Positions 8,342 to 13,172 of a DNA stretch of 64,000 bases are shown here, in pieces; positions within the stretch are counted from its first letter, which is position 1; each line of letters opens with the position of its first letter. The position numbers and the translations under genes are program-made. The notes below the pieces were generated by a model. The model did no database searches and had not been told where the DNA came from. It was given only the letters and a program-made list of their open reading frames with translations. Origin of the DNA: a virus; the IMG/VR virus record IMGVR_UViG_3300032050_010539; one strand, 5' to 3'.

Positions 8342-8546
8342 TTAACGTAGTAGTTTATCTGTATATGCCGTTGGCACTATTAGTACCGTAGAGCCATCAG
8401 TATATACTAACTTATGCAACCTGATCATAAACCCATCCTCGTGTTCTGTATACTGTAGCTTCAGTGTGTCGAATAGGTATCTCATCAGCTGGACACTGCG
8501 GGCCCCATTATTGGGCCACATCACCGTATCAATCTCTACGCTGATT
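8342..8546 (-). pseudogene. 5'-truncated paralogue of 9389..9679
   Basis: ISVEID...VPT.YT.KLL shared; homology stops at ~8546 where the AT-rich gene 8550..8933 begins. Confidence 0.6.
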
Positions 8547-8549
8547 AAA

Positions 8550-8933
8550 TTAAGAATCACGATCAAATAATTCTACAGATATATCGCACATACAATAGTC
8601 CTCCTTATGTGTTACGACAATATCTTCAGAATTAGTCAAAGGGTGATCCCACCCTTTGGGAGTGATTACTTGTAAAGCAATATACTCTTCTATTTCATCC
8701 CAATTAACATCTAAAAACAAGTTTTCTTTAGATATTAATTGACGACCACATCCGTGGTGTTTTACTAAATTAATCACTAAGTCGCATAATTTAGTTGCTC
8801 CTTCTGCATTCTCAGCGTAAGATGCAATGGGAACATTTATACGCATCTTATCGTAATAATTATCGGTTTTTTGCCCTTCACTTAGCCAATAAGCTCGCTG
8901 AATATCTGGGCGATCATTGTCGATGCCGTACAT
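8550..8933 (-). CDS. hypothetical protein (AT-rich insert)
   Basis: 127-aa ORF. Confidence 0.65.
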   Translation of the reverse strand: MYGIDNDRPDIQRAYWLSEGQKTDNYYDKMRINVPIASYAENAEGATKLCDLVINLVKHHGCGRQLISKENLFLDVNWDEIEEYIALQVITPKGWDHPLTNSEDIVVTHKEDYCMCDISVELFDRDS

Positions 8934-9018
8934 ATTGATTGCTTTTCCCCTACTTAAGCTTCAGGGTATCCCTAATAAGGATTAGATAAAGCGCACGCGA
9001 CTACGACTATAGTACATA

Positions 9019-9040
9019 GTTTCAATTCCTAATAGGAGTT
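9019..9040 (-). CRISPR. solitary CRISPR-repeat-like unit (type I-D-like 3' half)
   Basis: minus strand AACTCCT-ATT-AGGA-ATTGAAAC: 4-bp stem followed by the canonical ATTGAAAC handle. Confidence 0.5.
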
Positions 9041-9088
9041 CTTTGTGCGATTAACTCTAATATATCCTGCATTCCTAACCCGTGAGAG

Positions 9089-9310
9089 TTAGATTATGCA
9101 ACTATCCCAATTGTCCCAAATCCAATCATCGAATTTTTTATAAAGCCTCGATTCTGATTCTTGATCAGTTGTATCTAGAAAAGAGCATGAGTATTTTTCC
9201 CAAAATCCAAAGTTTTGATCTTTCATAAAACTTAATGCTTGTTTAAAAGCTTCTTCTTTAGTTTTATGCTTCGAGATGAATTTGTTGTTCCAAAAAAACT
9301 GAATTGTCAT
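9089..9310 (-). CDS. hypothetical protein
   Basis: 73-aa ORF with AGGAG RBS. Confidence 0.65.
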   Translation of the reverse strand: MTIQFFWNNKFISKHKTKEEAFKQALSFMKDQNFGFWEKYSCSFLDTTDQESESRLYKKFDDWIWDNWDSCII

Positions 9311-9388
9311 GATTTCTCCTGTTTTTCTTCTACTTAAGCTTTAGGGTATCTCTAATAGGGGGGCCCCTCGTGATATACTACGCCCTAA

Positions 9389-10859: not shown

Positions 10860-10932
10860 TGCAGAATAGCGGAATCGAACCACTTTGAGCCGTCTTATGA
10901 GGACGGTGCCTATACCAATCGGCCAATTCTGC
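10860..10932 (-). tRNA. second tRNA with CAT anticodon
   Basis: GCAGAAT acceptor stem, identical anticodon arm CCGTCCTCATAAGACGG, GGTTCGATTCC. Confidence 0.92.
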
Positions 10933-11391
10933 TTATTGGGAAACCGTAGCTATGGTCTCATAGTCTATTATTCAGTAGGTGCTTCTATGGGGGGCCCCGC
11001 TCGTGCTAAGGCCACTACTACGGGTTAGGGGCCCGCGGGTTTATCGCCCCTCATGTTGAGTTATTACTTGCTCGAGGGCCATGGATAGTGCGGGCCCGCA
11101 GTCTAACTCTATACGGTAGCTTATCACGCTATTGACCTTAATCTTATCGTTCTCGAACCAATCACAACTGCGCTAGGCTCGAACTCACCGTATGCTTCTA
11201 CACTGGTATCCATTACGTAGCTCAGCGCTACGCTTCCACAGTGAAATCAGTCTGGCCCGCGCATAGCAGCTGTGCGTCTTCTACACGATAGTAGAAGGCC
11301 CTGTTACTGTAATTAGCTGGGCCCACAGTAAGTCCTACACAGTACTGAGTTAATGTGGCGCGCCTTGATATCTATGTTGTTTATGCTCAGG

Positions 11392-11613
11392 TTAATCATT
11401 ACTTAGAAGCTCTACTAGATAATCAATGGAACGGATACTATATTCTTTATTCGAGCCCTTGGCCCGCCAGCGGTTACGCGTCGGATAGTAGTAGTAGAAG
11501 CGGCCCTTAACGTTAATCAGTAGGGACCCATTACCAACAGAGGACCATTTAATGCCGTGTTTATCTAGGCACTCCTTAGCGTGATCAAACTCAGGGAAGT
11601 TTTCATTATTCAT
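11392..11613 (-). CDS. hypothetical protein, paralogue of 12205..12426
   Basis: MNNE..AK..LD.H.I.W...YYYY..R.RWRA.GSN.EY...SID.L shared. Confidence 0.75.
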   Translation of the reverse strand: MNNENFPEFDHAKECLDKHGIKWSSVGNGSLLINVKGRFYYYYPTRNRWRAKGSNKEYSIRSIDYLVELLSND

Positions 11614-11641
11614 GGGCTCATCCACTTTAATTAATAGGGTA

Positions 11642-11670
11642 TTGACAGGGCGGGGGCCCTGTGCTATAAT
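11642..11670 (+). promoter_or_regulatory. consensus sigma70/SigA promoter
   Basis: TTGACA-17nt-TATAAT with extended TG. Confidence 0.85.
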
Positions 11671-11676
11671 ACACGC

Positions 11677-12100
11677 ATGTGTATAACACATCTGCAGACG
11701 TAAGGCGAAGCTTTATACTGCGTACGCCGTGCCCCTAACTCACGAGAGCACGAAGGGAATGAGGCCAGGACTGCCTCACTACCACCTGGGTACCCGACAC
11801 CCACCTGCCATCGATAAGGTGATGATGGTAGGTAAGTCAAACGGCATACCGATAGGTATGTAGCCCCACACGGGGCGGAGGGGATGACCCCTTGCAGGCG
11901 GGAGGGGGCAGCGCACGCAGGTAATGAGAGCCACGGAGCAGCGACCGACTGGGGGGAGGGACTCCCGTAAGGGAGTTAGGCCTATCCTCTCCTCAGGATG
12001 ACATATAAACCGCCCTTGGCGATTCCCCCAATCGGGTGAAGCTATTTATTAGACGCTGTAACCAATAAATTATTGGCCCCCTTACGTTATCGGGGGGGCC
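11677..12100 (+). ncRNA. candidate large structured non-coding RNA
   Basis: no ORF; directly downstream of the consensus promoter; many stems, e.g. ACCTGCCATC/GATGGTAGGT, CATACC-GATA-GGTATG, GACTCCC-GTAA-GGGAGTT, GCCCC-ACAC-GGGGC. Confidence 0.55.
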
Positions 12101-12195
12101 CACCACAGGCCCACAACAGCTAACTTAATCCCTACTAGGGATTGAAACTCTAGGATGGGTCCCTCTGATTAGCTGTTGTGGGCCTGTGGTGGGCC
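12097..12195 (+). CRISPR. solitary type I-D-like CRISPR repeat enclosed in a 27-bp inverted repeat
   Basis: CTTAATCCCTACTAGGGATTGAAAC (12124-12148) between GGCCCACCACAGGCCCACAACAGCTAA and its reverse complement. Confidence 0.7.
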
Positions 12196-12204
12196 GTTAG
12201 TTAA

Positions 12205-12426
12205 TTAAGGGATCCTGGAGAGGAACTTTATTAGGTGGTCGATAGAGTGTGTATTATACTCCCTATTGCTTCCTCTGGCCCGCCACCTCCCCCGGCGCAG
12301 GTAGTAGTAGTAGGAGCGCTCTCCTACTGTGATACGAAGGCACTCATCGCTGATAGGCGCCCAGGGTATGCTGTGTGCATCTAGTCGCGCCTTAGCGTAA
12401 TTTATATCATTACTCTCATTATTCAT
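12205..12426 (-). CDS. hypothetical protein, paralogue of 11392..11613
   Basis: shared motifs with its paralogue. Confidence 0.75.
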   Translation of the reverse strand: MNNESNDINYAKARLDAHSIPWAPISDECLRITVGERSYYYYLRRGRWRARGSNREYNTHSIDHLIKFLSRIP

Positions 12427-12926
12427 TGGCTGTTCTATTATATTGGCACTATTATACTATCATTTGGCCGCCTAGACTATCGTATGGCACTATTGTGTCC
12501 ATTATTCTAATTGGGGCTCGCGGATAGTCCCTGTTCTATACCTGCTCTGCCCCTCGCCCTTATGAGAGTGGTTATAAGGGGGCTGTTATAAGGAGGGGGC
12601 CACCACGGAAGGGGTGGCGGTAATACCTACACGATCAACATAGTTCAGTCGTCATGTCCTTGTCTTCCTTATATTGATAGTCCACGAGGAGGGAAGGGGC
12701 CGCCTGATTATAGAGCGGGCCCCCCTCTACCGCAGGGCCCACTGTGTTATAACATCGCGGGCCCCATATGCATTGGTATATAACAGTAGCTGAGCTTATA
12801 CACTGGTTCCTTATACCGTAGTAGAGCCCACCATCGTGACAGTATGGCCTCAATACTGAGCTACACCGGCCGCGTACCGTTATACCGCGGGCCTTATGTT
12901 AGTTGACTGTATCCTCAATGTTGGGG

Positions 12927-12955
12927 TTGACACCACTGCAGGGGCGTGGTATAAT
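12927..12955 (+). promoter_or_regulatory. consensus sigma70 promoter
   Basis: TTGACA-17nt-TATAAT, extended TG. Confidence 0.8.
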
Positions 12956-13143
12956 GGATGTATTGGATTATAGAGGTGCGGCCGCTAGACTATTTAGGCC
13001 CATCTTGCTAGCATATCCACAAAATTAGCCTAATACATCACCCCCCTTCACAGAGATGCGGCCGGCGCCCAGATAGCACCACCTATGGCCATCGAGGGTT
13101 CCTAGAGCCCGGGCCTTCCTCGCTAATTAGTACATCGGCATTA

Positions 13144-13172
13144 TTGCCACGACGATAATTTCGATGTATAAT
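13144..13172 (+). promoter_or_regulatory. sigma70-like promoter
   Basis: TTGCCA-17nt-TATAAT followed by hairpin GCTCACTGA..TCAGTGAGC. Confidence 0.6.

Follow-up and report, generated by a model that had tools for sequence, protein, structure and literature searches.

A partial type I-D CRISPR repeat in the loop of a long hairpin of a Microcystis phage, a candidate RNA decoy

In an intergenic region of a Microcystis phage, the loop of a perfect inverted repeat carries 25 nt that, by alignment, genuinely copy the host type I-D CRISPR repeat at its functional 3' end. We tentatively read the element as a Racr-like RNA decoy against the host type I-D system, with a probability of roughly 0.4. A leftover of recombination with a host array is nearly as likely as an RNA decoy.

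The window, by which we mean the whole 64,000-nt stretch of viral DNA analyzed, is by its sequence a Fukuivirus, i.e., a Microcystis myovirus of the Ma-LMM01/MaMV type. Positions 11000-13000 match MaMV-DH01 and MaMV-DC at ∼89 to 90%, and parts match Ma-LMM01 and the MaMV-CH and MaMV-DL phages. The hairpin region is gene poor, with short open reading frames (ORFs) only and two tRNA-Met genes in the stretch. Near-perfect promoters on the plus strand at 12927-12955 (12/12) and 13144-13172 (11/12) lead into short-ORF and repeat DNA related to the 56-bp repeat region of Ma-LMM01. The host genus forms toxic blooms and relies heavily on CRISPR, chiefly on types I-D and III-B. The Microcystis type I-D repeat DR1b (37 nt) has been published, and its 3' end is CTTAAACCCTACTAGGGATTGAAAC (PMC4428289). 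FACHB-524, the laboratory host of MaMV phages, has a I-D system with the same repeat and 200 spacers (PMC11855584). Cas6d binds the repeat stem-loop and cuts 3' of it to leave an 8-nt 5' handle, and the protospacer-adjacent motif (PAM) of the Microcystis aeruginosa I-D system is GTH (PMC10212523).

The repeat copy and its hairpin

Positions 12097-12195 form a perfect inverted repeat of 27 bp, with 100% complementary arms and a 45-nt loop (Table 1). The sequence reads as the original prediction had described it, with a repeat with an ACT loop followed by 20 nt inside the inverted repeat. The predicted RNA fold of the hairpin has an energy of -72.8 kcal/mol (z = -9.06), which none of 200 shuffled sequences equaled. 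At gathering thresholds, Rfam returned no family in the whole window. In E-value mode, it returned only plant microRNA-precursor models, which fit any generic long hairpin, and sub-threshold CRISPR-DR models; CRISPR-DR5 aligns at model positions 16-37 of 37 with 25.9 bits, below its gathering score of 40.

Table 1. Features of the hairpin locus and of the second repeat unit, in window coordinates
Feature	Positions	Strand	Sequence, basis or remark
Second I-D-like unit	8968-9040 (repeat 9019-9040)	-	AACTCCTATTAGGAATTGAAAC, 19/22 to host repeat
Paralog of the 73-aa gene, phrog_27453	11392-11691	-	Likely start Met at 11613; diverges from the 11642 promoter
Consensus sigma-70-type promoter	11642-11670	+	TTGACA-17-TATAAT, TG before second hexamer; 12/12; conserved in MaMV-DC
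GC-rich structured non-coding RNA, ∼420 nt	11678-12100	+	Fold z = -4.77; conservation; RNA-library contigs
Small GC hairpin	12075-12100		GGCCCCC, 12-nt loop, GGGGGCC; overlaps first 4 nt of the long arm
5' arm	12097-12123	+	Two tandem 11-mers GGCCCACNACA
I-D repeat copy (3' 25 nt of the Microcystis repeat)	12124-12148	+	CTTAATCCCTACTAGGGATTGAAAC
Inner stem-loop of the repeat copy, at the hairpin tip	12125-12145	+	9-bp stem; RNA fold
8-nt handle	12141-12148	+	ATTGAAAC; by repeat alignment
20-nt loop tail ("spacer" position)	12149-12168	+	TCTAGGATGGGTCCCTCTGA
3' arm	12169-12195	+	Inverted-repeat search
73-aa gene, phrog_27453	12205-12426	-	Ends 10 nt from the hairpin; convergent with the ∼420-nt RNA

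The original prediction had assigned the repeat to type I-D and proposed aligning it to Microcystis repeats, and the alignment bears the assignment out. The loop 25-mer agrees at 24 of 25 positions with the 25 nt that end the Microcystis I-D repeat DR1b, GTTCCAATTAATCTTAAACCCTACTAGGGATTGAAAC. Of 17 Microcystis genomes searched, 12 contain array repeats that it matches, and these number in the hundreds. Within the window it is single even at 3 mismatches, and 0 of 100 shuffles match. Of window positions 11600-12450, only 12124 to ∼12149 matched in the 17 genomes (to array repeats), so the host homology begins with the first loop base and stops where the repeat stops. Phage specific are the parts without a match in these genomes, namely the arms, the 20-nt tail and the RNA upstream. 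Retained are the Cas6d stem-loop and the 8-nt handle, while the 5' 12 of the 37 nt are missing; a Cas6d cut would be expected between 12140 and 12141. The single difference from the host repeat is an A-to-T change at 12129, which turns the A.A mismatch of the host into a U-A pair and yields an uninterrupted stem.

The element had been described as solitary, with neither an array nor a cas gene nearby. At the locus itself, the absence of an array was confirmed. Elsewhere in the window, however, a scan with seven Microcystis repeat types gave matches, all of them I-D-like, at 12127-12148 (+) and, 3.1 kb away, at 9019-9040 (-). The claim about cas genes holds for 9.0 to 15.5 kb, where all ORFs are ≤229 aa and none has a cas-like family match. 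In the second repeat, the handle is identical and one stem pair has changed in a compensatory way (C-G to U-A); the repeat is followed by a 34-nt "spacer" and then a partial second repeat. The cassette is shared by 17 IMG/VR contigs, in which it is conserved and the DNA upstream varies, and lies within a segment (∼8546-9356) missing from sequenced relatives. The presence of this second mimic raises the odds of selection on repeat mimicry in Fukuivirus phages.

Scanning IMG/VR for the repeat yielded three further kinds of viral copy, namely leader captures (considered below), a mini-array and an array fragment. The mini-array, on a small unrelated viral contig without a match in the phage collection (L016:505-740; also L013 and L015), consists of three I-D-type repeats 73 nt apart. 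Its last repeat has the window 25-mer exactly, including the stem-closing T, and its last two "spacers" are near-identical. The array fragment (L011) is an ordinary stretch of CRISPR array with DR1 repeats and spacers. The same stem-closing T recurs in a solitary full-length I-D repeat on a Microcystis chromosome, far from arrays (L047:1490-1526; G403:C1:1049094-1049130). This chromosomal repeat lies behind a TATAAT box, ∼75 nt upstream of a gene start, and resembles a crRNA-like regulatory RNA.

Transcription and variation among relatives

The original prediction had placed the repeat downstream of the promoter at 11642. That promoter matches the consensus perfectly, but its role is doubtful: it lies ∼480 nt upstream of the repeat, it drives a separate abundant RNA, and the repeat is antisense to it in inverted relatives. 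The ∼420-nt RNA is nearly 100% identical among relatives, compared with ∼88% in the flanks. It had no Rfam family and no homolog in the 17 Microcystis genomes. RNA and hairpin are always jointly present or absent among relatives.

Contigs with the element and its neighbors occur in several small metatranscriptomes, and expression was read from the assembled contigs of four of these; the contigs are strandless and lack RNA ends, with DNA carry-over into the RNA libraries possible. Contigs at 11685-12101 (X18) and 11706-12043 (X19) fit an RNA starting just past the 11642 promoter. Summed contig depth in X15 reaches up to 37,000 at 11810-11860 (core, 11800-11922), compared with 440 in the left flank (11300-11798). 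The hairpin is bridged by contigs in two of the four metatranscriptomes: X16 (11850-12429) and X15 (11893-12209; depth, ∼2,200 versus 440 in the left flank). In the two low-depth metatranscriptomes, contigs end at 12101 or 12043 and restart only past 12130 or 12182. Because the contigs lack strand and ends and may include carried-over DNA, we regard transcription through the hairpin as plausible only.

The RNA-plus-hairpin module is flanked by two phrog_27453 paralogs sharing the conserved motif YYYY..R.RWRA.GSN. The 73-aa protein has no Pfam family. AlphaFold predicts an alpha-beta5-alpha fold for it (pLDDT 80), which matched nothing in the PDB at E ≤ 0.001; small nucleic-acid-binding alpha/beta domains are among the weaker PDB rows, which we do not count as evidence. 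Homologs of this protein are confined to the same phage group.

Ten relatives carry the element: MaMV-DH01, MaMV-DC, seven IMG/VR contigs (L005-L010), and the metagenome contig L085. In Ma-LMM01, MaMV-CH01, MaMV-CH02, MaMV-DL01 and MaMV-DL02, homology to the window is interrupted at ∼11698-12925, so that both the RNA and the hairpin are missing. A scan of metagenomes with a 16-nt arm pattern gave at least 119 matches and was unspecific; among the matches listed, only L085 had paired arms. We also observed, at window position 11400-11403, a ∼1.4-kb insertion in MaMV-DH01 and MaMV-CH02 (L001:2074-3282, L003:2072-3280), which the window lacks. The insertion contains a 402-aa ORF, which has a transposase annotation in DH01 and is called hypothetical in CH02.

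In L005, L006, L007-L010 and the window itself, the repeat is sense to the promoter at 11642. Three of the 10 relatives (MaMV-DH01, MaMV-DC and L085) carry the element in the opposite orientation between its flanks; thus, the repeat is antisense to that promoter and sense on the strand of the 73-aa gene, where it takes a 3' untranslated region (UTR) position. One inversion on the tree is enough to explain the two orientations.

Within the element, the handle is invariant (10/10 relatives), and the repeat shows 0 to 2 differences among relatives. The inner loop is ACT in window-type sequences and AGT in inverted ones, and the only stem change of MaMV-DC gives a G.U pair on the repeat-sense strand. 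The arms covary, with an A-T pair of the window type replaced by G-C in L007-L010; in the inverted type (DH01 and L085), an arm change on one side makes a G.U pair in the repeat-sense RNA, which reads A.C on the opposite strand. The tail is the most variable part, with 3 variable sites and a 21-nt insertion in L007-L010, the last 17 nt of which are an inverted copy of the arm/right-flank junction. The same four contigs also have the small GC hairpin with its loop flipped. Taken together, the insertion with its inverted junction copy, the flipped GC loop and the inversion of the element indicate that fold-back template switching operates at this locus.

Decoy, recombination scar and other readings

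As a decoy, the element would act through transcripts that run through the hairpin and present the repeat stem-loop. The window would make them by read-through from the 11642 promoter, and in inverted relatives they would correspond to the 3' UTR of the 73-aa gene. RNase III could cut the long double-stranded stem and release a small hairpin RNA. Host Cas6d would bind the repeat stem-loop and cleave before ATTGAAAC. Cas6d, along with Cas5d and Cas7d on the handle-bearing stub, would then be tied up in useless complexes, as shown for Racrs of other subtypes. We infer the expression of the sense strand, its processing, the binding of Cas proteins and the resulting inhibition.

Several features argue for a decoy. 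The Cas6d stem-loop and handle module is kept exactly, its handle does not vary, the arms covary, the window holds a second mimic, and the host has a matching system. The sole change strengthens the stem, and this variant recurs in the solitary chromosomal repeat and in the viral mini-array. RNA-library contigs bridge the hairpin, and viral repeat units of other subtypes provide a precedent (PMC10651486). Against these stand the strandless contigs, which in two metatranscriptomes break off at or before the hairpin, the distance of the promoter, the inversion in 3 of 10 relatives, the retention of only 25 of 37 nt and the absence of the element from Ma-LMM01 and four MaMV phages. Moreover, the repeat is no more conserved than the neighboring RNA, which gives no sign of purifying selection on it. 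Because the element sits between convergent units, inversion need not abolish function; we note that this is a rationalization and not a result.

The strongest rival, which we consider somewhat unlikely in itself, is that the repeat fragment was left behind when a phage recombined with a host I-D array at a spacer/protospacer and that its RNA has no present role. Such recombination would remove the PAM and let the phage escape the spacer, and the hairpin cage and the inversion would be by-products of fold-back template switching at a palindrome. Evidence for a scar comes from the siblings L006 (1250-1470), L012, L014 and L017, two of which carry the hairpin as well. They have captured ∼175 nt from a host I-D array, made up of the leader and the first repeat. 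The captured repeat is full length (36/37), and the ∼138 nt before it match the I-D leader of 10 Microcystis genomes at 90 to 95% identity; in one host genome, this match stops a single base short of where a NIES-843 array is published to begin (PMC4428289). The captured repeat is joined exactly at its end to the anticodon loop and 3' half of a phage tRNA-Met, the 5' half of which has been replaced by the capture. The captured leader includes the promoter, and the other junction shows GCGGGGC microhomology. As these captures show I-D leader and repeat DNA entering the family by recombination with host arrays, a non-functional scar is a serious rival to the decoy.

Local features are divided between scar and decoy. 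Template switching is visible at the locus in the 21-nt insertion and flipped GC-hairpin loop of L007-L010, and the tail varies more than the rest of the element. The repeat is truncated, differs in orientation among relatives and is no better conserved than its surroundings, and its few differences are compatible with neutral drift in a slowly evolving region. However, a scar would not be expected to keep precisely the functional module, nor to bear as its only change one that strengthens the stem and is shared with other solitary and mini-array repeats. The stem change in MaMV-DC, which is G.U compatible on the sense strand, and the second, independently placed repeat with its compensatory pair also argue against a scar. 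Neither a sibling with an "empty" hairpin nor a host spacer matching the tail was found among the relatives, IMG/VR, and the 17 Microcystis and the species-representative genomes. A preexisting hairpin would put the arm end CTAA before the tail, and CTAA is not a GTH PAM. When host I-D spacers were compared with 20 kb of the window, matches were swamped by a multicopy host-like gene and only 17 candidates per genome were scored, so that we give this comparison no weight.

Alternatively, the long hairpin may be a functional unit for another purpose, with the repeat as a passenger in its loop, a reading that we find improbable. The hairpin could mark a transcript boundary or be cut by RNase III between the convergent units, or it could bind a protein as a DNA site made of four GGCCCACNACA 11-mers. 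All four exact copies of this 11-mer in the window sit in the hairpin arms, and the tandem pair in each arm is spaced one helical turn apart. The arms are perfect or compensated across relatives. The position of the hairpin between the abundant plus-strand RNA and the minus-strand 73-aa gene, 10 nt past the stop of the latter, would suit a boundary, as would the RNA contigs of X18 and X19 that end just before it. An intrinsic terminator was rejected, as the consensus scan made no call at the hairpin, the 45-nt loop is atypical, and no U-tract follows the stem on the plus strand. A DNA site is disfavored by the absence of an adjacent recombinase or obvious DNA-binding gene, the 73-aa protein having neither a Pfam family nor a significant structural match. 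Above all, a passenger leaves the intact fragment of host repeat unexplained. Two mobile or switching explanations were also considered. A miniature inverted-repeat transposable element (MITE) was rejected because, despite its terminal repeats, the element is single copy in the window, absent from the 17 host genomes, set in the same flanks in relatives and without a flanking duplication. We found no clear support for an invertase-driven switch: both orientations occur among relatives, but one inversion suffices and no recombinase gene is adjacent.

The original prediction had offered, as a second option, a short guide that redirects host Cascade. After the Cas6d cut, handle, tail and 3' arm would load the host I-D Cascade and aim it at a host gene, a rival phage or a promoter. 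A handle followed by unique sequence is indeed the layout of a crRNA 5' end, but the tail is the least conserved part of the element and carries the insertion in four relatives. Alone or extended into the 3' arm, it has no second copy in the window at up to 3 mismatches and no target in IMG/VR outside the same element. The 20 to 35 nt after the handle had no match in the 17 Microcystis genomes, and in species-representative genomes the repeat end joined to the tail or to the tRNA half gave only chance matches in unrelated taxa. A search for a target with a GTH PAM plus seed gave one match per host genome, within a conserved coding gene; it stops after 11 nt and occurs at chance frequency, as often as the reversed control. 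We take this gene, by eye, to encode a Uma2-type endonuclease. Because the tail lacks a target in host genomes, the window and IMG/VR, the guide reading is unsupported, and we consider it highly improbable for this element. The window has an intact tRNA-Met at 10860-10932 (-), in which GTC, fitting the GTH PAM, precedes the 35 nt that match the sibling leader-repeat-tRNA-half units. Window-type phages would thus be targets if the sibling unit makes a crRNA, and guide-like units may exist in the Fukuivirus family.

A bolder form of the decoy reading, which we hold to be rather unlikely, is that Fukuiviruses carry a set of RNA countermeasures against bacterial I-D systems derived from captured host repeats. 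The set would comprise the two window mimics (12124-12148 and 9019-9040) and the sibling leader-repeat units; the caged mimic would be freed by cleavage of the 27-bp stem and would still be expressed after inversion, as it sits between convergent units. If true, this would be the first case of a bacterial type I-D system being countered by an anti-CRISPR of any kind; the sole type I-D inhibitor listed in a 2023 review is an archaeal-virus protein (PMC10212523). An I-D repeat mimic would help explain how Ma-LMM01-like phages persist against hosts with hundreds of I-D spacers. For the genome-editing system based on M. aeruginosa type I-D, which is already in use (PMC7648086), it would also provide an inhibitor of small size. 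Even as a scar, the element would, with the sibling leader captures, record direct exchange of DNA between a lytic phage and host CRISPR arrays.

Relation to known systems

The sibling leader captures are one close comparison. They share with the window element the phage family, the host repeat, the 3-kb tRNA and non-coding region, and the question of whether the unit is a decoy, a guide or a scar. The sibling unit is full length, with leader, promoter and a clear recombination junction, whereas the window element has 25 nt of host DNA, no leader and a hairpin cage.

In chloroplast non-coding DNA, fold-back or intramolecular recombination is well known to cause small inversions in hairpin loops. 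As there, both orientations of the element occur between perfect inverted repeats, and a neighboring small loop has flipped too. Loop inversion of this kind is a mutational process and not a function; it explains the change in orientation of the element but not the presence of the repeat. Virus-borne mini-CRISPR arrays, reportedly described by Medvedeva et al. in 2019, are said to act in interviral conflict; in them, a spacer matching related viruses lies between two or more repeats. The window element likewise has a host-type repeat on a virus, with no cas gene nearby. It has one partial repeat, however, and its tail had no match in the window, IMG/VR or the 17 host genomes, so that we do not class it as a mini-array.

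CreA and other crlRNAs (bioRxiv 10.1101/2024.12.27.630466) also consist of a solitary repeat followed by a pseudo-spacer. In contrast, the present element is on a phage and not beside a toxin or defense gene, and no partly matching promoter target was found for it; the only GTH-plus-seed match, of 11 nt and at chance frequency, is inside a host coding region. A regulator of this type was thus rejected.

The nearest published pattern is that of solitary repeat units (SRUs) and Racrs. SRUs were first listed by Faure et al. 2019, as cited in PMC10651486. They have since been cataloged on viruses, with I-D-type units included in IMG/VR, and units of several other subtypes inhibited CRISPR-Cas (PMC10651486). 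The original prediction of a Racr candidate is partly supported, in that the element fits this pattern: it is solitary, intergenic, on a phage and covered by RNA-library contigs. It resembles the host-subtype repeat, and its coverage of 25/37 nt (68%) is "partial" by the 90% rule of SRUFinder. It has one copy within 3 kb, with no other repeat within ∼100 bp, and lies on a mobile element with no cas-like gene between 9.0 and 15.5 kb. Adjacency to acr genes is frequent among Racrs; the neighbors here are the two paralogous phrog_27453 genes, which have no Pfam family. In the accessible portion of the supplementary lists of PMC10651486, neither the repeat variant of the element nor its reverse complement was found; I-D-type SRUs from lake viromes are included there.

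Like the units of Camara-Wilpert et al. 2023 (PMC10651486), the element is a single intergenic viral repeat mimic with no cas gene in the surrounding 6.5 kb. It matches the subtype and repeat of its own host, keeps the Cas6 stem-loop and handle, and has small genes adjoining. Unlike them, it retains 25 of 37 nt, has no promoter directly ahead, sits inside a 27-bp perfect hairpin and varies in orientation among close relatives. SRUs and Racrs, including I-D-type units in lake viromes, are already known (PMC10651486). What is new is that the repeat is truncated and caged in a hairpin, that it occurs in two orientations, that it goes with an abundant phage RNA, and that it belongs to a phage family that has repeatedly taken up host I-D leader or repeat DNA.
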